Assembly: GCA_011525805.1 (NCBI GenBank)
Contig: WYBR01000096.1
Location: 8,969 to 72,968 of the forward strand
DNA from: Vicinamibacteraceae bacterium
Lineage (GTDB): Bacteria > Planctomycetota > Phycisphaerae > Phycisphaerales > UBA5793
DNA length: 64,000 nt
Reading direction: 5' to 3'
Shown here piece by piece: positions 17,816-26,024 of the stretch. The number at the start of each line of letters is the position of its first letter. Within the stretch, counting starts at the first letter, position 1. The translations under genes were made by a program, and so were the position numbers. The notes under the pieces were generated by a model, which was not told the origin of the DNA, did no database searches, and saw nothing but the letters and a program-made list of their open reading frames with translations.

Positions 17816-18490
17816 ATGATCGACGAATCAAGCGAATCACAGGGATTTGAATCGAGCACGGTCGGCGTGTTCCGCACGGCCGCCACCGTCAAGGGCGGTC
17901 GGCGCTTCAGTTTCGGCGCGCTCGTCGTCGTCGGCGACCGGCGCGGCCGGGTCGGCTTCGGCTACGCCAAGGGCAAGGAAGTTCCCCCCGCGATCGAGAA
18001 GGCGGAGAAGACCGCCCGGCGCGACCTCCTCAAGGTCGAACTCATCAAGGGCACCATCCCGCACTCAGTGCTCGGCCGCTTCGGCGCCAGCGAGGTGCGG
18101 CTCCTCCCTGCCAGCCCCGGCACCGGCGTCGTCGCGGGCGGCACCGTCCGCGCTGTCCTCGAACTCGCCGGCGTGCGCGACTGCCTGACCAAGTGCTACG
18201 GCTCCACGAACAAGAAAAACCTCGTCAAGGCCACGATGAACGGCCTGCAGCAACTCCGCTCTAAGCGCCTCGTCGAGGAGTTGCGCGGCGTGTCGATCGA
18301 AACCACCCACGTCGAGGAGTTCACCGCCAACGCCCCCGAGGTCGAATACGTTCGCAAGGCCCCGCCCAAACGCGAAGAGCAGTCCGGCGGAGGCCGTCGC
18401 GGCTCAGGCCGCGGACGCGGCCGATCTCGTCGCGAAGGCGGCGAGGAGGGCCAGGCCGGGCAGACCGGCCAGAGCCCCGCTCCGGAGTAA
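17816..18490 (+). CDS. rpsE: 30S ribosomal protein uS5 with C-terminal extension
   Basis: TVKGGRRFSFGALVVVGD, PASPGTGVVAGG. Confidence 0.97.
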   Translation: MIDESSESQGFESSTVGVFRTAATVKGGRRFSFGALVVVGDRRGRVGFGYAKGKEVPPAIEKAEKTARRDLLKVELIKGTIPHSVLGRFGASEVRLLPASPGTGVVAGGTVRAVLELAGVRDCLTKCYGSTNKKNLVKATMNGLQQLRSKRLVEELRGVSIETTHVEEFTANAPEVEYVRKAPPKREEQSGGGRRGSGRGRGRSRREGGEEGQAGQTGQSPAPE

Positions 18491-18592
18491 CCACCGCCCC
18501 ACCGCGGGCTTCGGCCCCGACGGCGCATCGCCAATGTCAGCCAATGCGGCCGGACCCGTTCCGACCCGCACGTCCGAAAGAGAGTTCTCACC

Positions 18593-19087
18593 ATGATGAT
18601 CCACGAGATCACCAGCCTCGTCGAGCGACACAAGGACCGCAAGCGAGTCGGCCGCGGCCGCGGCTCCGGCCTCGGCAAGACCTCCGGCCGGGGCCACAAG
18701 GGCGCCAAGTCGCGCAGCGGCTGGAGCGAAAAACTCGCCCGCGAAGGCGGCCAGTTGGCTTATTTCCGCCGAATCCCCAAGCGCGGTTTCTCCAATAAGA
18801 ACTTCGCCACACGGTTCTACGTCGTCAACGTGCGCGACCTGCAGAAGCACTTCAGCGACGGCGAGGCGGTCAGCCCCGCGACCCTCATCGACAAGGGCCT
18901 GGTGCGCGACGCGGCCCTGCCGGTGAAGATACTCGGCTGCGGCGAACTCACCCGTCGCCTCTCCGTCTCCGCCGGGCAGGTCTCCGCCTCGGCACGCGAG
19001 AAGATCGAAAAGGCCGGAGGAACGATCGAACTGAGCGACAAGAAATCCTGGACCCGGCCGCCGTCGAAGAAGACCGAACGCACCTGA
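18593..19087 (+). CDS. rplO: 50S ribosomal protein uL15
   Basis: RVGRGRGSGLGKTSGRGHKG, EGGQ, RIPKRGF. Confidence 0.98.
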   Translation: MMIHEITSLVERHKDRKRVGRGRGSGLGKTSGRGHKGAKSRSGWSEKLAREGGQLAYFRRIPKRGFSNKNFATRFYVVNVRDLQKHFSDGEAVSPATLIDKGLVRDAALPVKILGCGELTRRLSVSAGQVSASAREKIEKAGGTIELSDKKSWTRPPSKKTERT

Positions 19088-19174
19088 CCGCGCCCGCCAC
19101 CCGCGCCGCGGAGGACGGCGGCGCCGCGGCGACGTTTCCGCCTCACGAGTGATACCCAGATCGGCTTGCCCACC

Positions 19175-20581
19175 ATGCTACAGGCCTTCCTCAATGTCTT
19201 CCGCATCCCCGAACTGAGGAACAAACTGCTCTTCACGATCGCGATGCTCGCGATCTACCGGATCGGTTTCTGGGTCCCGCTCTCGGGCGTCGATCAGTCG
19301 CGCCTCGCCGCCTTCTTCGAGTCCGCGAACCAGGAGTCGGGGGCGGCGCAGAAACTCACTCAGTACATCTCCACGTTCACGGGCGGCGATCTCGGCCAGT
19401 CCACGATCTTCGGCCTGGGCGTCATGCCCTACATTTCCGCCGCCATCATCTTCCAACTCCTCGCCTCCGCCTGGGAGCCGCTCAAGAAACTCCAGAAGGA
19501 AGGCCCGACCGGCCGCCAGAAAATCCAGGAGTGGACGCGCTACGCCACGATCGGCCTGTGCATCCTCCAGGGCTTCGGCTGGCTCACCTACATGCAGTCC
19601 CAGGGGCTGATCTACCCCGCCATCTCCGACAACCTCGGCCTGCTGTGGTCCTTCCGCATTCAGGGCGTCCTCGCGCTCGTCGCGGGCACCACCTTCCTCA
19701 TGTGGCTCGGCGAGCAGATCGACAAATACGGCTTGGGCAACGGCGTCTCGCTCATCATCACCGCCGGCATCCTCGCTCGAATGCCCGCCGCCGTCAACCT
19801 CGTCATCGCCGACTTCAGCCTCGACGCCACGAGCGGAGCGAAGTACGGCCCGCTCTCGATCATCTTCCTCGTCTGCGCGTTCGTCGCCGTCACCGCCGGC
19901 GCCATCGTCATTACCGTCGCGCAGCGCCGCATCCCCATCCAGCAGGCCAAACACACCCGCGGCCGCAAGGTCTACGGCGGGCAGAAGGCCTTCCTCCCCC
20001 TGCGCATCAACCACGGCGGCGTCATGCCCATCATCTTCGCCCAGTCGCTGATGATCTTCCCCTCCGTCGGCCTGAGCAGCCTCGCCCAACTCGGCCAGCG
20101 CAGCGACGTCGAATGGTGGCAGCGGCTCACCGACTTCCTCGGCCGCTCCTTCACGATGGGCAACTACCCCTACGTCGTCATCGAGATCCTCCTCATCTAT
20201 TTCTTCAGTTACTTCTGGACCACCGTCCAGTTCAACCCCAAGGAGATGTCCGAGCAGTTGCGCAACCACGGCTCGTTCATCCCGGGTCTGCGGCCGGGGC
20301 CGCGCACCGCGGAGTATCTCGAAACGGTCCTCGAGCGCGTGACCTACGTCGGCGCCGGCTTCCTCGCCATCATCGCCGTCATTCCCACGGTCGTCGCCAC
20401 GGGTCTGGGCATTCCCTGGGTCGTCTCGAGTTTCCTCGGAGGCACCGGTCTGCTCATCGTGGTGAGCGTCGGCCTCGACTTCGTCCAGCGCATCGAGGCG
20501 AACCTGCTCATGCGCAACTACGCCGGCTTCCTCGGCGGCACCGGCAGCGGCGACCGCATCCGCTCCAGCCGCGGCGCGTAG
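19175..20581 (+). CDS. secY: Preprotein translocase subunit SecY
   Basis: LGVMPYISAAII, WLGEQID..GLGNGVSL, GGVMPIIFA, IPGLRPG, GGTGLLIVV. Confidence 0.98.
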   Translation: MLQAFLNVFRIPELRNKLLFTIAMLAIYRIGFWVPLSGVDQSRLAAFFESANQESGAAQKLTQYISTFTGGDLGQSTIFGLGVMPYISAAIIFQLLASAWEPLKKLQKEGPTGRQKIQEWTRYATIGLCILQGFGWLTYMQSQGLIYPAISDNLGLLWSFRIQGVLALVAGTTFLMWLGEQIDKYGLGNGVSLIITAGILARMPAAVNLVIADFSLDATSGAKYGPLSIIFLVCAFVAVTAGAIVITVAQRRIPIQQAKHTRGRKVYGGQKAFLPLRINHGGVMPIIFAQSLMIFPSVGLSSLAQLGQRSDVEWWQRLTDFLGRSFTMGNYPYVVIEILLIYFFSYFWTTVQFNPKEMSEQLRNHGSFIPGLRPGPRTAEYLETVLERVTYVGAGFLAIIAVIPTVVATGLGIPWVVSSFLGGTGLLIVVSVGLDFVQRIEANLLMRNYAGFLGGTGSGDRIRSSRGA

Positions 20582-20681
20582 CGCATTCTGCCGCCGGCGC
20601 CGCGCCCCGGCGGAGTTCGATGGCGCAGGTGCAAGTGCGCACGATGTCCATTGAACTCCGCGACGCCGCCCGCACGCCCGT

Positions 20682-21091
20682 CATGCATCGACCCCAGAGC
20701 GGGTCCATGCATGGCACCACTCGAGAACGCCACGTCCCGAACTCCGCGCGTGGTGCCATGCTTCGCGGCTCTGAGCGAAGCATGGCGAACGGGCAGACGC
20801 AATCGTGCCCCCCCCTCGCCCCTCGGCACACGTCGCCCGCCCTCAGTCCAACTCAGGCCAGGGAAGCGGGTCGATGTGTGGCACCCTCACTTGATTCACC
20901 GCAGCAGAGTGGGCGCCACACAGCATCGCGCCAGCGTGCTGTGTGCGGGCGAGCAACGACGAACGAATTGAAGGAGCGATGGCCGCTTCTGCCCGCTGCA
21001 CTGCACTCTCGCTCAGAGCAGCGAGCGTGCAGTGGCACCCCTTCGCGCGCAGGGTGGCATCGATCGCCGCCGCTCTGGGCGGAGATCGATG
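20682..21091. repeat. Array of six alternating-orientation hairpin (REP/BIME-like) units
   Basis: Units CA-stem-loop-stem-TG-GCACC(C) at 20682, 20827 and 20999; reverse units at 20750, 20911 and 21052; loop CAGAGC/GCTCTG in four of them. Confidence 0.8.
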
Positions 21092-21267
21092 GCGAATGCG
21101 TCGCGAGACCAGACCGCAGCGCCGGCGAGGACGAAAGGCGACGCGGCATTCGAGAGCGGAGCCTCGAGTCGCCTCGACTCAAGGAAAAGCAAACCGGGCG
21201 GCGCCTGGGGGCGCCGCCCGGAGGAGGAATGCGTGCGTGTCGATGCGGCCTGGAGGGCCGCGTCGAA

Positions 21268-21885
21268 TCAGGCCCGGCGGCGGCGGGCGCCGCAAGCGAG
21301 GCCGGCAAGGCCGAGCAGCGCCAGCGAGGAAGGCGCCGGGATGTAGTTGATGTAGCCGGAGAAGGTGCGGGGCGAGAAGCGGCTGCCGCCGAACTCCGGC
21401 GCGCCGCGCGCCACATCGCTGAAAAGTGTCAGGTTGGCGTCGGAGAAGGTGGTCTGGTGGCCGCCGCTTCCCGTGCCGGTGTAGCGCACGCCGCCGATGA
21501 GCCCCTGGAAGAGGAATCCCGTCACTTCGCCGTGCGCGAGGGCGATCGGGTTGTTGAGAAAGAAACTGGTCGGGTTGGTCGTACCGGCGGAGAACGCATC
21601 GACCTCATCGACGATCGACCAGCCGTCAGACGTGCCGTCGAATCCGACGTAGGAGCCGGTGCGGCGCCAGACGCGCAGACGAACGGGGCCGTTCTCAGGC
21701 TCGCCCGAGACCATGCCGATTTCGATGACGGTGAGATTGCCGGACGTCGCCGTAAGATCGACGAACACTCCAGCCCCGTCTTCGCTGCGCCCGTTGTTGG
21801 GAGGCGCCGTGTTCAGGATGTCGGCCGAGGCCACGGTGGTCGCCAGCGCGAGCGCGGCGAACGACAGAAACGCCTTGCGAATCAT
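21268..21885 (-). CDS. PEP-CTERM-type (IPAP variant) exosortase target protein
   Basis: Signal peptide; C-terminal IPAPSSLALLGLAGLACGARRRRA. Confidence 0.9.
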   Translation of the reverse strand: MIRKAFLSFAALALATTVASADILNTAPPNNGRSEDGAGVFVDLTATSGNLTVIEIGMVSGEPENGPVRLRVWRRTGSYVGFDGTSDGWSIVDEVDAFSAGTTNPTSFFLNNPIALAHGEVTGFLFQGLIGGVRYTGTGSGGHQTTFSDANLTLFSDVARGAPEFGGSRFSPRTFSGYINYIPAPSSLALLGLAGLACGARRRRA

Positions 21886-22244
21886 GATTCCTCTTCCTCC
21901 TCAATCTGTTGCGCTCGGCGCGACGCCTGCACGGCCGCGAATGCGGATGGGACGTTCATTGGCGCCCGTCGAGCCCACGTCAGGCGGCGAGCGCCGCCCA
22001 CTCATTTCTCTCCTCGAGCCCCCGGACCCGGAGGCCCACGATGCTGCAAAGATAACCCAAGAACGCCGCCCGGACAAGTACAAATCCTGAAAATCGTCAG
22101 ATTTTGTTCGCAAGTGCTAAGGCCCGGCCGCCGTCGCGGTGGCCAGCCATGTGAAGCGTGCAAAAATGGGGACTCTGACGAAACCGGGAGGCCTCCGCCA
22201 GCGCCTCGCGATGGCCCGCCTCCACCCATATCGGGGAAGGGGGG

Positions 22245-24332
22245 TCAACTCGCCAGGTTCGTGATCAGGTTGAGCACGTCGTTGTAGAACGTCACGAGGA
22301 AGAGGCTTCCGATCAGCAACAGCCCGACCGCCGTCGCCGCGTTCTGCACCTGCACGCTGACGGGAGAGCCTTTGATCTTCTCGATGATGAGGAAGACCAT
22401 CAGTCCGCCGTCCACGATGGGAATCGGCAGGAAGTTGAGCACCGCGAGGTTGACGTTGATGACGCCGAGGAACAGCAGCAGGTACGGCAGCCCCTGGCCG
22501 GCGACGCGCGTCCCGAGTTCAGCGATGCCCACCGGCCCCTTCAACTGGTCCACCTTGATCGAGCCGCGCACCAGCCGATCGAGCGTCTGGTAGGTCGTGA
22601 TGATCATCTCCCACGTGCGCTCGAGGCCCATCGAGATCGCGGCGATCGGGTTGTCCGCCCGCTGCGTTTCGGTGAGGGGCTGAAAGATCGTCACGCTCAA
22701 CTGGCTGTGCCATTCAAGCGCCAGCACGGTGCGGGCCGCGTCCTGGTCGATCGACCACGTGAGCGGCTCGACCGGTCGGCCCGGTACGGGCAGTTCGCAC
22801 GAGATTTCGATGTCCGTGCGCGGCGAGTCCGGGTCGAGCGCGCCGCGAAGGGCCAGGAAGACCTCGCGCCACGTCGCGACCTCGCGGCCGCCGATCGAGG
22901 CGATGCGCGATCCCGGCATAAGGCGAGGCGCTGGGGACGGCGCCGGCCGCTCCGAGCCCGACCCGTCCGCGACGCCGCGCAGGGGAAACGAGTCGATCGC
23001 GTCGACGACGATCGGCGGCGCCATGGCGGGCATGTCAGTAAACGCGAAGCCCGCCCGCCCCGCCCGATCGACCGGCACGTCGAAATCGAGCTCGCGCCCC
23101 TCGCGAAGGACGGTCACGCGGCCCTTGGCGCGCGGCCTGAGGGCTCGCTGCAGTTCGTCGGATCGCAGCCACATCGCGCCGTCCGCTCCCACGATCACGT
23201 CGCCGGGCGCGATCCAATCCGCGGTTCGGCCCGGATCGACGTCGATCACCACCGGCGCCGGCACGAGGCCAAGGAGGTGGCGCACCGCGTACCACGAGCC
23301 GCCCTCCTCGATCTGCGAGAGCATGAAATCCGGATCGGGCCGCAACATGCCCCGGCTGACGGCGCCGGTCTCGGGATGCTCGAACGTGAGTTCAAGCGGC
23401 TTGCCCTCGGAGCGATCGATGGCGCGGCTGAGTTGCCAGACGGCGTCGATCTTCTCGCCGTTCACCTGCGCCAGGCGCAACCCCGGCGCGGGAGTGACGC
23501 CTTCCAGCCCCGCGAGGCGGAAGACCGTCTGCGCCTGCCGCTCGGCGGGCGACCCGGGCTTGTAGTCGAGCAGGGCGGCACTCTGCGTCGAGGCGATGCC
23601 CAGCGCCAAGAGGCGCGTCTCGCGGTCGGCCCGCGGCGCGAGGTCGAATGTCAGCCGCGTTCCGGCCCGATCCACCTCGATCCGCAGCGACTGCCCGGGC
23701 TTGGACACGGCCGCGGCAAGGAGAATCTGCTCGTAAGTCCGGATCGGCTTGCCGTTGATAGAGATAACTCGGTCGCCCGGCCGGATGCCCGGCCCCTCGA
23801 TGCCGTGCTCGGCGGCGTTGGTCGGCATGGTGACGGCGGCGAGGCTGTCGGGGCTGACGCCTCCGATCACGGGTACGAGGGTATCCACCCCCCACATGAA
23901 GCAGATCACGAAAAGAACCAGAGCAAAGATGATGTTCATGACCACGCCGGCGGAGACGACGCACATGCGGGCCCAGATCGGCCGGCTGCTGTAGGAGCGC
24001 GGGTCGTTGACCACCGCGGCCATGTCGAGGTCTTCCTGCCCGAGCATCTTGACGTACCCGCCGATGGGAAGGTAGTTGAGGCGGTACTCTGTCTCGCCAA
24101 AATCGCCCGCGCGCCCGCCGGCCTTGAGCCGCGCTTCGTACTCCGGCGCCGTCGTGCCGGAACGAAAGCCGATGCCCTTGCGCCACGACAGGAGCGCCGG
24201 ACCCATGCCGATGGCGAACTGCTCGACGCGGATGCCGACCCACTTGGCGACGGCAAAGTGCCCCAGTTCGTGAACGAAGATCACGAGGCTGAAGCCGATG
24301 ACCAAAAGGAGAAAGTCGAAGAAGGTGGACAT
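22245..24332 (-). CDS. rseP: RIP metalloprotease RseP (M50, multiple PDZ domains)
   Basis: HELGH, PIGGYVKM, AGVVMN, NFLPIPIVDGG; downstream of dxr. Confidence 0.93.
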   Translation of the reverse strand: MSTFFDFLLLVIGFSLVIFVHELGHFAVAKWVGIRVEQFAIGMGPALLSWRKGIGFRSGTTAPEYEARLKAGGRAGDFGETEYRLNYLPIGGYVKMLGQEDLDMAAVVNDPRSYSSRPIWARMCVVSAGVVMNIIFALVLFVICFMWGVDTLVPVIGGVSPDSLAAVTMPTNAAEHGIEGPGIRPGDRVISINGKPIRTYEQILLAAAVSKPGQSLRIEVDRAGTRLTFDLAPRADRETRLLALGIASTQSAALLDYKPGSPAERQAQTVFRLAGLEGVTPAPGLRLAQVNGEKIDAVWQLSRAIDRSEGKPLELTFEHPETGAVSRGMLRPDPDFMLSQIEEGGSWYAVRHLLGLVPAPVVIDVDPGRTADWIAPGDVIVGADGAMWLRSDELQRALRPRAKGRVTVLREGRELDFDVPVDRAGRAGFAFTDMPAMAPPIVVDAIDSFPLRGVADGSGSERPAPSPAPRLMPGSRIASIGGREVATWREVFLALRGALDPDSPRTDIEISCELPVPGRPVEPLTWSIDQDAARTVLALEWHSQLSVTIFQPLTETQRADNPIAAISMGLERTWEMIITTYQTLDRLVRGSIKVDQLKGPVGIAELGTRVAGQGLPYLLLFLGVINVNLAVLNFLPIPIVDGGLMVFLIIEKIKGSPVSVQVQNAATAVGLLLIGSLFLVTFYNDVLNLITNLAS

Positions 24333-24380
24333 GCCGTGGAGATCCCGTGCGGTTGACAGAGCATAGGCGGGCGGGGGCGG

Positions 24381-24800
24381 CTACTGGCCGACGGCGTCGA
24401 CCATCGTGTACAGCGGCGCGAGAAGGAGTAAAACCTGAGCGATGATCGACGCCAGCAGCGCCGTCGCCAGGGCCATGGCCAGAAGCGGCGCGCGGCGCAG
24501 CGCCGCGAACAACCCCGTCACGGCGATGGCGGCGAGCGGGACGGCGATCATCCAGCCCGAAACGACCTGGCCCGCGCGATCGCCCCCCATCCACTCCGAC
24601 GCCGCCAGCAGCCACCGCGTCGCGCGCGGCAACTCGAACTCGAACTCCGCGAACATCTCGCGGAACATCGGAACGATGAAGAGCAGCGCCGCCGTCTGCA
24701 CCGCGATCCACAGCCAGGCGAGCACGAGGCTGTACCAGAAGGTGAGACGGCGGACCACGGGGCGCGCCTGGCTCAGAACGTCATCGTGGGAACTCGTCAT
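24381..24800 (-). CDS. Small membrane protein resembling the TM segments of GspF/PilC
   Basis: LFIVPMFREMFAEFEFELPRATRWLL and C-terminal PLYTMVDAV; 3 TM helices. Confidence 0.6.
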   Translation of the reverse strand: MTSSHDDVLSQARPVVRRLTFWYSLVLAWLWIAVQTAALLFIVPMFREMFAEFEFELPRATRWLLAASEWMGGDRAGQVVSGWMIAVPLAAIAVTGLFAALRRAPLLAMALATALLASIIAQVLLLLAPLYTMVDAVGQ

Positions 24801-24809
24801 GGCCTCTCC

Positions 24810-26018
24810 TCAACGGGCGGCGGGAATCGGCGCGCCTAGAAGCGTGCGTACGTGCCCGCGGGCGCGCCGGTCCGCCTCGAAGACATCCTCGAGCGTGCGA
24901 ATCGGACTGACGGAGATTGCATCGAGCGCGTCCGCGGCGAGATCGGAGATGCGCCCGAAGGGGATACTCCCGGCGAGGAAGGCGGCGACGGCTTCCTCGT
25001 TGGCGGCGTTGAAGATGGCGCCGCCCGTGCCGCCGGCCCGCACGACCTGCCGCGCCAGCCGCAGCGCCGGAAACCGCTCTTCGTCGGGCGCTTCGAAGTC
25101 CAGCCGGCTCAGCGCCGTCCAGTCGATCCGGCGGGCGCACCCCTCCGGCCGCCGCGGCCAGGTGAGCGCGTACTGGATCGGCGCGCGCATGTCCGGCTGA
25201 CCGAGTTGCGCGAGCACCGAGCCGTCGTTGAACTCCACGAAACTGTGGATGATGGACTGCGCGTGGACGAGCACGTCGATGCGCTCGGCCTCGAGGCCAA
25301 AGAGCCAGTGGGCTTCGATTACTTCAAGGGCCTTGTTGGTCATTGAGGCGCTGTCGATGGTGATCTTCGGCCCCATCTTCCAGGTCGGGTGGCTCAGAGC
25401 CTCGTCAACCGTGGCGCAGGCAATTTGTTGGCGGGGCCAGGTCCGGAACGGCCCGCCCGAGGCCGTCAGCACGATGCGCCGGACCGTCGAGGTGTCCAAC
25501 CCGCGCTGATCGGCGCCGAGCGTCCGGGACTGAAGGCACTGAAAGATCGCGGAGTGCTCGGAGTCGACCGGGAGGATGTGCGAGCCGTGTCGTGCGGCGA
25601 GGGGCATGATGATCTCGCCGGCGGCGACGAGCGTTTCCTTGTTCGCCAGCGCGATGTCGCAGCCGCGCTCGATGGCCGCGGCGACGGCGGAGAGGCCGGC
25701 CGAGCCGACGACCGCCGCGACGACGACATCCGCCTCGACGGCCTCAACAAGCCGCCGCGCCGCGTCGGCTCCACTGAAAACGCGCATGCCGGAAGGGGCG
25801 CCCTGGGCCGCCTCGCGCGCCAGCGCCGCGTGCCGCACGCCGAAGCGCGCGGCCTGCTCGAAGAGCAGGGGCGCGTTGCCGCCGGCCGCGAGACCCACAA
25901 CCTCGAAGCAGCCGCGGTCGATCGCGTTGAGATGCTCGACGACCGCGAGCGTGCTCGTGCCGATCGAGCCGGTGGAGCCGAGGATGATGAGGCGTCTTGG
26001 TCGAGCGGCGTGATCCAT
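24810..26018 (-). CDS. dxr: 1-deoxy-D-xylulose-5-phosphate reductoisomerase
   Basis: LGSTGSIG, LANKE, PVDSEHSAIFQ, LTASGGPF, HPTWKMGPKITIDSA. Confidence 0.98.
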   Translation of the reverse strand: MDHAARPRRLIILGSTGSIGTSTLAVVEHLNAIDRGCFEVVGLAAGGNAPLLFEQAARFGVRHAALAREAAQGAPSGMRVFSGADAARRLVEAVEADVVVAAVVGSAGLSAVAAAIERGCDIALANKETLVAAGEIIMPLAARHGSHILPVDSEHSAIFQCLQSRTLGADQRGLDTSTVRRIVLTASGGPFRTWPRQQIACATVDEALSHPTWKMGPKITIDSASMTNKALEVIEAHWLFGLEAERIDVLVHAQSIIHSFVEFNDGSVLAQLGQPDMRAPIQYALTWPRRPEGCARRIDWTALSRLDFEAPDEERFPALRLARQVVRAGGTGGAIFNAANEEAVAAFLAGSIPFGRISDLAADALDAISVSPIRTLEDVFEADRRARGHVRTLLGAPIPAAR

Positions 26019-26024
26019 CCGCAA

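Follow-up and report, generated by a model that had tools for sequence, protein, structure and literature searches.

The 686-nt gap between the convergent secY and PEP-CTERM genes in the window (the whole stretch of 64,000 nt that was analysed) contains six hairpins that keep a common loop and tail on stems of very different sequence. What these hairpins are, and why such stems lie side by side, is the question that this locus raises. The initial annotation had proposed that they are structure-defined substrates of an HUH or other recombinase or, alternatively, an array of processed small RNAs. All six hairpins that it had reported between 20682 and 21091, with a conserved loop and tail, were found in place. 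The features of the gap and of its borders are given below, the class letters being those of the genome-wide REP classes described further on.

19166..20581, plus strand: secY, last gene of the ribosomal-protein operon, with S5 and L15 upstream (Pfam SecY, 339.9 bits)
20609..20661, no strand assigned: degenerate remnant in which two half units resembling class D pair together (14-nt arms, 93% complementary)
20682..20718, plus strand: U1, REP class B, CATGCAT.GACCC-CAGAGC-GGGTC.ATGCATG-GCACC (dG -9.7 kcal/mol, z -2.7)
20752..20784, minus strand: U2, REP class C, reading on the minus strand CATGCTTCGC-T-CAGAGC-C-GCGAAGCATG-GCACC (dG -15.3 kcal/mol, z -6.3)
20827..20885, plus strand: U3, REP class E, long-loop variant, CACACGTCGCCCGC...GCGGGTCGATGTGTG-GCACC (dG -14.2 kcal/mol, z -2.6)
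20912..20945, minus strand: U4, REP class F, reading on the minus strand CACACAGCA...TGCTGTGTG-GCGCC (dG -14.5 kcal/mol, z -3.2)
20999..21039, plus strand: U5, REP class A, with a T.C mismatch at stem depth 9 (dG -14.5 kcal/mol, z -3.7)
21053..21091, minus strand: U6, REP class D, with a CCACC tail (GGTGG head) and a T.C mismatch at stem depth 9 (dG -13.3 kcal/mol, z -3.4)
21194..21221, minus strand: intrinsic-terminator-like hairpin with T run of the PEP-CTERM gene, not a REP; the sole terminator-like site in 20400-21400
21268..21885, minus strand: PEP-CTERM sorting-domain protein gene, convergent with secY (TIGR02595, 23.6 bits, cut-off 16; Pfam PEP-CTERM, 19.1 bits, under the cut-off of 20.7)

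The array begins about 100 nt past the secY stop codon and runs in the order B> C< E> F< A> D<, with exactly one unit for each of the six classes. All six units start with CA and end with TG, followed by a GCACC, GCGCC or CCACC tail. The scan reproduced the annotated layout, in which orientation alternates and the units form three pairs with their tails (the GCACC-type ends) face to face, and the CAGAGC loop was seen in four of the six units. Unit length is 33-41 nt, and 59 nt for U3, a long-loop copy of a class whose members mostly have a short AAG loop. A conserved flank sits about 12 nt upstream of U1, and U6 pairs with U5 across a 13-nt spacer. Folded as single-stranded DNA, all six units gave hairpins with minimum free energies of -9.7 to -15.3 kcal/mol and z scores of -2.6 to -6.3 (200 shuffles per unit). 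The combination of loop and tail, CAGAGC-N4-20-TGGCACC, was observed three times in the window for 0.08 expected, a number reached in none of 100 shuffles. Over the whole window TGGCACC by itself was not enriched (5 observed versus 8.2 expected), and four of its five copies lie within 20712-21039. The remnant at 20609-20661 is located between the secY stop codon and U1; its first part (20609-20625) matches the inner half of U6 (21078-21094) at 94% identity, and the whole looks like a rearranged or truncated REP pair.

The genome that contains the window (hereafter G000; 4.54 Mb, 138 contigs, 67% G+C) was scanned whole for further copies. MAFFT alignment of the six window units left their stems unaligned, as these differ in length and sequence, and a structural scan was therefore used instead of the covariance model that had been suggested. 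It asked for a CA...TG stem with nine or more pairs and no more than a single mismatch, and directly behind it a GCACC that could differ in a single position. There were 510 raw candidates, which yielded 302 non-overlapping units in six classes (A 114, D 72, B 34, E 31, C 27 and F 24 copies); candidates beyond these classes were nearly all singletons. The loop-plus-tail pattern CAGAGC-N4-20-TGGCACC retrieved 120 copies (59 forward, 61 reverse) in which a few stem sequences recurred often. A seventh class, G, with a CA..TG-CCACC frame, an AAG loop and two stem mismatches, is present in 37 copies, often paired as two compensated variants about 40 nt apart; it was missed by the one-mismatch limit of the scan and found by eye beside a gene on contig C82, and other classes may be missed likewise. 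The family totals about 340 copies in G000, without fixed relation to genes. These counts are lower bounds because the assembly breaks at units, 33 of the 276 contig ends lying within 300 nt of one. Each hairpin of the window is a copy of a class that is repeated at high copy number throughout the genome, contrary to the initial remark that a standard repeat finder would miss the array.

The units are mostly extragenic: 291 of the 302 lie outside GC3-supported ORFs, 8 inside and 3 partly inside, these ORFs covering 64% of the genome as predicted by a crude, purpose-made gene caller. The eight units wholly within coding-like ORFs (C60:22780-22934, C126:5719-5823, C75:31-124, C15:169174-169206 and C117:28734-28774) may be in-frame REP insertions.

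Comparison of the classes revealed a shared frame made of a flank of about 12 nt, a CA...TG foot, a class-specific stem of 10-15 bp, a short loop and a (G/C)CACC tail. The flank, yTTGCCCGyyCG, is found on the side away from the tail in all six classes, and the loop reads CARRGC in four of them. Stem depths 1-8 are paired in all six class consensus sequences; depths 1-2 are invariant (C-G, A-T), while depths 3-8 carry 2-4 pair types. Classes A and D have in common a T.C mismatch at depth 9. When the units are read on the other strand, which is the orientation used in the literature, the tail becomes a 5' head beside the hairpin foot, GGTGG (which contains GTGG) in classes D and G and GGTGC in classes A, B, C, E and F. 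The stems had been described as wholly different and compensated. This holds at the level of the family, as the pair types at depths 3-8 indicate, and fails for a single local array that would have diverged: the stems look wholly different because six subfamilies adjoin.

The arrangement of the units follows a regular grammar. The 302 units form 98 clusters, including 31 single units, and the largest cluster holds 11. Among the 60 pairs with tails facing genome-wide, 45 join A with D, and in 42 of these 45 the gap is 12-15 nt; seven E/F pairs with tails facing have gaps of 14-15 or 26 nt. The 78 pairs that have their other ends facing involve several class combinations and are separated by about 38 or about 78 nt. 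Direct neighbours are equally constrained, with gaps of 24 nt in nine of ten cases for E then B, 25 nt in seven of eight for B then A and 31-32 nt in all eight for F then C. The 12-15-nt spacers between tails are variable in sequence and fixed in length, and the linkers of about 38 nt are conserved in sequence. Unit orders such as A> D< and E> B> A> D< recur. Clusters of alternating REPs with regular spacing and recurrent linkers are what defines BIMEs.

The initial annotation had advised a look at the genes flanked by hits. The genes of G000 that bear on this point are:

G000:C40:16298-16843, minus strand: RAYT of 182 aa (NF047646 REP_Tyr_transpos, 95 bits, cut-off 80)
G000:C82:22526-22999 (locus L010, C82:22339-23303): second RAYT-like gene, with class G flanks (NF047646, 72 bits, below cut-off)
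G000:C77:189092-189523 (locus L011, C77:188962-189652): third RAYT-like gene (61 bits)
C101:20002-20346: IS200-like Y1 transposase TnpA (PF01797, 88.2 bits)

The RAYT on contig C40 lies inside A/D arrays: one flank holds ten A/D units within 670 nt, the opposite flank eight within 510 nt. All 18 are within 1 kb of the gene, the nearest being 88 nt from the NF047646 match. The gene's immediate neighbours are a D(+) unit and, at the opposite end, an A(-) unit, so that the GGTGS ends of both point at the gene and REPs surround the RAYT in inverted orientation. The protein aligns to E. coli TnpArep (PDB 4er8) over the HUH motif HVH and the catalytic-tyrosine helix YIHLNAVRAG. Among the 11 matches to NF047646 in G000 this gene alone scores above the cut-off, and it is the single such copy in the genome; its Pfam Y1_Tnp score of 21.2 is slightly under the cut-off of 23. 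A Pfam Y1_Tnp search of G000 gave nine matches, and the C40 ORF was the only one with class A-F units nearby. Units of these classes were found neither within 1 kb of the C101 TnpA and nine further Y1/RAYT-like matches nor anywhere on contig C101, and in G000 no RAYT was found beside class B, C, E or F units. The C77 gene is flanked by an inverted hairpin pair with compensated A/G changes that occurs nowhere else in G000.

The units thus have the properties of REPs, being short hairpin palindromes of high, dispersed copy number and extragenic location, and the C40 protein has those of a RAYT in its HUH motif, tyrosine helix (YIHLNAV) and model score. E. coli REPs are described as imperfect palindromes of 30-40 nt with a head at the foot, of types y, z1 and z2 (PMC3333891, PMC2817692). 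According to these accounts, several types coexist in a genome and most copies are inversely paired with defined linkers, as is the case here. The layout of the array is also that reported for E. coli BIMEs and for the REP dimers of many bacteria (PMC3333891, PMC3733652). The resemblance extends to the E. coli REPtron, in which BIME-2 flanks tnpA_REP/yafM: there as here, the palindromes are imperfect and carry a short, conserved head at the hairpin foot, mosaics of two REP types enclose the RAYT gene, and the types next to it contain a stem mismatch. Nunvar et al. describe the RAYT as flanked by two inverted REPs, often BIMEs, and the C40 arrangement matches that description (PMC2817692). There are also clear differences from E. 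coli REPs. The head here is GGTGC or GGTGG and not GTAG, the stems are longer (10-15 bp) and fall into at least seven classes with almost no stem similarity, the CARRGC loop and the far-side flank of about 12 nt are conserved across classes, and the host belongs to the Phycisphaerales, within the planctomycetes, instead of the gammaproteobacteria. The head given in published accounts is GT(A/G)G at the 5' foot (PMC2817692, PMC3733652); a conserved head occupies that position here, but the five classes with GGTGC carry a variant of that tag.

Further counterparts are found in the survey of Di Nocera et al. (2013), which reports several REP families per genome, located mainly between convergent or unidirectional ORFs, as well as REPs in the PVC group, including Rhodopirellula baltica, and the occurrence of degenerate heads (PMC3733652). 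As described there, SMAG / GTAG-6 to -9 of Stenotrophomonas maltophilia and the families of Opitutus terrae and R. baltica put different stems behind one head tag, and they share with the present family head-to-head and tail-to-tail homo- and heterodimers and a preference for convergent or unidirectional gaps. The GTAG-20 elements of O. terrae, itself of the PVC superphylum, have the head GTGG in most copies, a mutated head of the kind seen in classes D and G (PMC3733652). No published family with the present consensus was found in a search of running text, and one of the PVC families of PMC3733652 may resemble it; likewise the full-text search found no paper linking Phycisphaerae with REP, REPIN or BIME. 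As for the REPINs of Pseudomonas, Bertels and Rainey (2011, PMC3116915) describe inverted REP doublets with a short spacer as the commonest form and the RAYT as typically single-copy. Inverted doublets with a short spacer, linked to a RAYT, are the commonest form here too, but the two REPs of a REPIN are near-identical and able to fold into one long hairpin, whereas the commonest doublet here, A/D, joins unrelated stems, each arm being able to fold on itself only. A REPIN in the strict sense is ruled out by the predominance of A with D, whose stems differ, among pairs with facing GCACC ends.

The initial annotation had stated that its idea would be refuted if no other copies were found, or if all matched an already described REP class with a known RAYT, which would remove the novelty. 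Further copies do exist; the second condition applies in spirit, as the system belongs to the known REP/BIME/RAYT kind and is deprived by this of most of its novelty, and what is new is an example in Phycisphaerales with a variant head. We conclude that the array is very probably a BIME-like cluster of six REPs, one from each stem subfamily of a single Phycisphaerales REP superfamily. It probably belongs to the 3' untranslated region of secY, where the units may have a secondary effect on the stability of the mRNA 3' end. The copy number, the class structure, the extragenic location, the spacing grammar and the presence of a RAYT between A/D arrays are established.

Forty relatives were searched for the same elements. 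Within the genus, CAGAGC-N4-20-TGGCACC occurs 134 times in G001 (242 times with a wider pattern), 17 in G004, 13 in G002, 12 in G005, 3 in G003 and not at all in G006, for 120 in G000; in the 34 genomes outside the genus it stays at the level of a reversed-pattern control. In the congeners the same loop and tail come with different stems, some classes being absent from G000. Their A-like and D-like variants display compensated changes, and a G-C pair replaces the T.C mismatch. In G001 both A/D and A'/D' doublets are present, each variant with its own partner (e.g. C76:28-666 and C34:8930-10193). No match to the C40 RAYT was found in the 260-contig assembly of G001, the congener richest in repeats. 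RAYT homologues with 35-60% identity were detected in 18 of the 40 relatives, and homologues of 50-51% identity in two Phycisphaerales/Phycisphaeraceae MAG records. At 7 of 11 foreign loci the RAYT homologue is adjoined by a CA..TG-(G/C)CACC hairpin with an unrelated stem; hairpins stand inverted on both sides at L027, L029, L034 and L036, and at L026 with mixed A'/D'. At the other four the detector used found no such hairpin. With the relaxed detector 64 of 300 random chunks were positive, but these were drawn from the REP-rich G000 and are not a clean null, and the relatives were therefore judged by hairpins directly beside the RAYT, often inverted on both sides. What travels with this RAYT clade is the frame and not the stem. 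The genomic association, a RAYT between class A/D arrays and homologues next to hairpins with the same foot and tail, supports the part of the initial proposal that saw in the hairpins putative structure-defined HUH substrates.

The other part of that proposal, that the units are small structured RNAs (processed sRNAs or regulatory 3'UTR hairpins) with a primary function at the RNA level, is improbable. RNA-library contigs from two studies run from secY without differences through U1 into U2, to 20781 and 20788. They fit co-transcription of at least the first units with secY and prove neither transcription nor processing: all public-run data are contigs, which carry no transcript ends, strand or level, the RNA libraries may contain DNA, and the RNA contigs end at the same repeat where the DNA contigs break, which deprives their ends of any value as a sign of processing. 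REPs are, moreover, described as often transcribed and able to act in 3'UTRs (PMC3733652; bioRxiv 10.64898/2026.03.23.713779), and the CARRGC loop kept across four classes is not needed by the RAYT model. Against a primary RNA function, the best Rfam match in 19500-22500 reached 20 bits for a gathering score of 98, all matches being of chance level; no promoter-like site was found in 20400-21400; the 120 copies of the loop-plus-tail pattern use the two strands equally (59 forward, 61 reverse); and the family's approximately 340 copies are not fixed relative to genes. The small-RNA array is in this respect left without support. Neither of the two RNA runs has contig coverage of 21149-21219, a weak hint that the PEP-CTERM transcript may stop short of the array.

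Two other enzymes could be invoked. The units might be relics or miniature derivatives of IS200/IS605-type ends mobilised by a classical, IS200-like TnpA and not by a RAYT, for the genome encodes a good IS200-like Y1 transposase on C101 and the ends of IS200/IS605 elements are likewise described as imperfect hairpins with a 5' guide tetranucleotide (PMC3479197). However, class units are absent from C101 and from 1 kb around ten other Y1/RAYT-like matches; only the C40 RAYT has them, and its protein passes the RAYT equivalog model and not merely Y1_Tnp. The units also form BIME-like mosaics, not left-end/right-end pairs around a cargo, and an IS200/IS605 origin is very improbable. An even more remote reading is that of attC-like sites of an integron or of another tyrosine or serine recombinase system. 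Recognition of attC sites takes place on the folded single strand, as the initial annotation noted, and in these sites, as in the present hairpins, the ends are conserved while the stem varies. The spacers between units (12-80 nt) nevertheless contain no ORFs and there are no cassettes, orientation alternates while attC arrays are co-oriented, the approximately 340 copies are dispersed over 98 clusters, and the enzyme found in association with them is an HUH/Y1 RAYT. We consider the chance of such sites to be negligible.

For the BIME-like cluster of REPs, a mechanism can be proposed by analogy with E. coli TnpArep. That enzyme is reported to bind the folded single strand, to read the 5' head base-specifically and to leave five apical base pairs untouched (PMC3479197, PMC3333891). 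The same sources state that it requires both the head and a stem mismatch, and that it cuts and rejoins at nearby sites and can multiply and reshuffle BIMEs. The Phycisphaerales RAYT would in the same way bind a folded single strand through the head and lower stem, the recognition elements being presumably the GGTGS head and the C-G/A-T foot; the T.C mismatch of classes A and D, the most abundant ones and those that flank the RAYT, may matter too. Cutting and rejoining nearby would amplify and reshuffle the units, and stems could drift or be swapped provided that the frame stays. The conserved CARRGC loop has no counterpart in the E. coli TnpArep model.

A stronger version of this mechanism is that one Phycisphaerales RAYT clade reads the frame only (GGTGS head, C-G/A-T foot, mid-stem mismatch and perhaps CARRGC) and accepts any stem. 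We regard it as conceivable though rather doubtful. If it were true, numerous classes with unrelated stems would be amplified together by a single enzyme, and the doublet preferred for mobility would be a 'heterodimer' of non-complementary hairpins (A/D, or A'/D' in the congener), a form unable to extrude as one long cruciform. In that event the genus would amount to a natural mutational scan of RAYT substrate recognition, and the conserved loop would hint at a contact or a host factor absent from the E. coli structure.

REP/RAYT systems have been studied almost only in Proteobacteria, and the present family extends them to Phycisphaerales. It is a clean case: the head is a variant, seven or more stem classes share one frame, the RAYT sits inside its own arrays, and congeners have the same frame on other stems. 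As a natural data set it is convenient for working out what in a REP is actually read by a RAYT. The repeats also break assemblies and account for many odd hairpin arrays in the genome and its relatives, which are not new systems.

Some observations concern the surroundings of the array. The ribosomal-protein operon (S5, L15, secY; 17816-20581) ends at secY, without adk, map or infA downstream, and beyond the array 21268-26024 is a convergent block encoding the PEP-CTERM protein, an RseP-type M50 protease with PDZ domains and Dxr. Joints of metagenome contigs at unit borders were considered as evidence of mobility and rejected, other genomic copies of the repeats accounting for them. DNA nearly identical to 19800-21900 of the window is present in bioreactor, activated-sludge and soil metagenomes of 11 studies, and these sources suggest that the organism lives in engineered or freshwater habitats.
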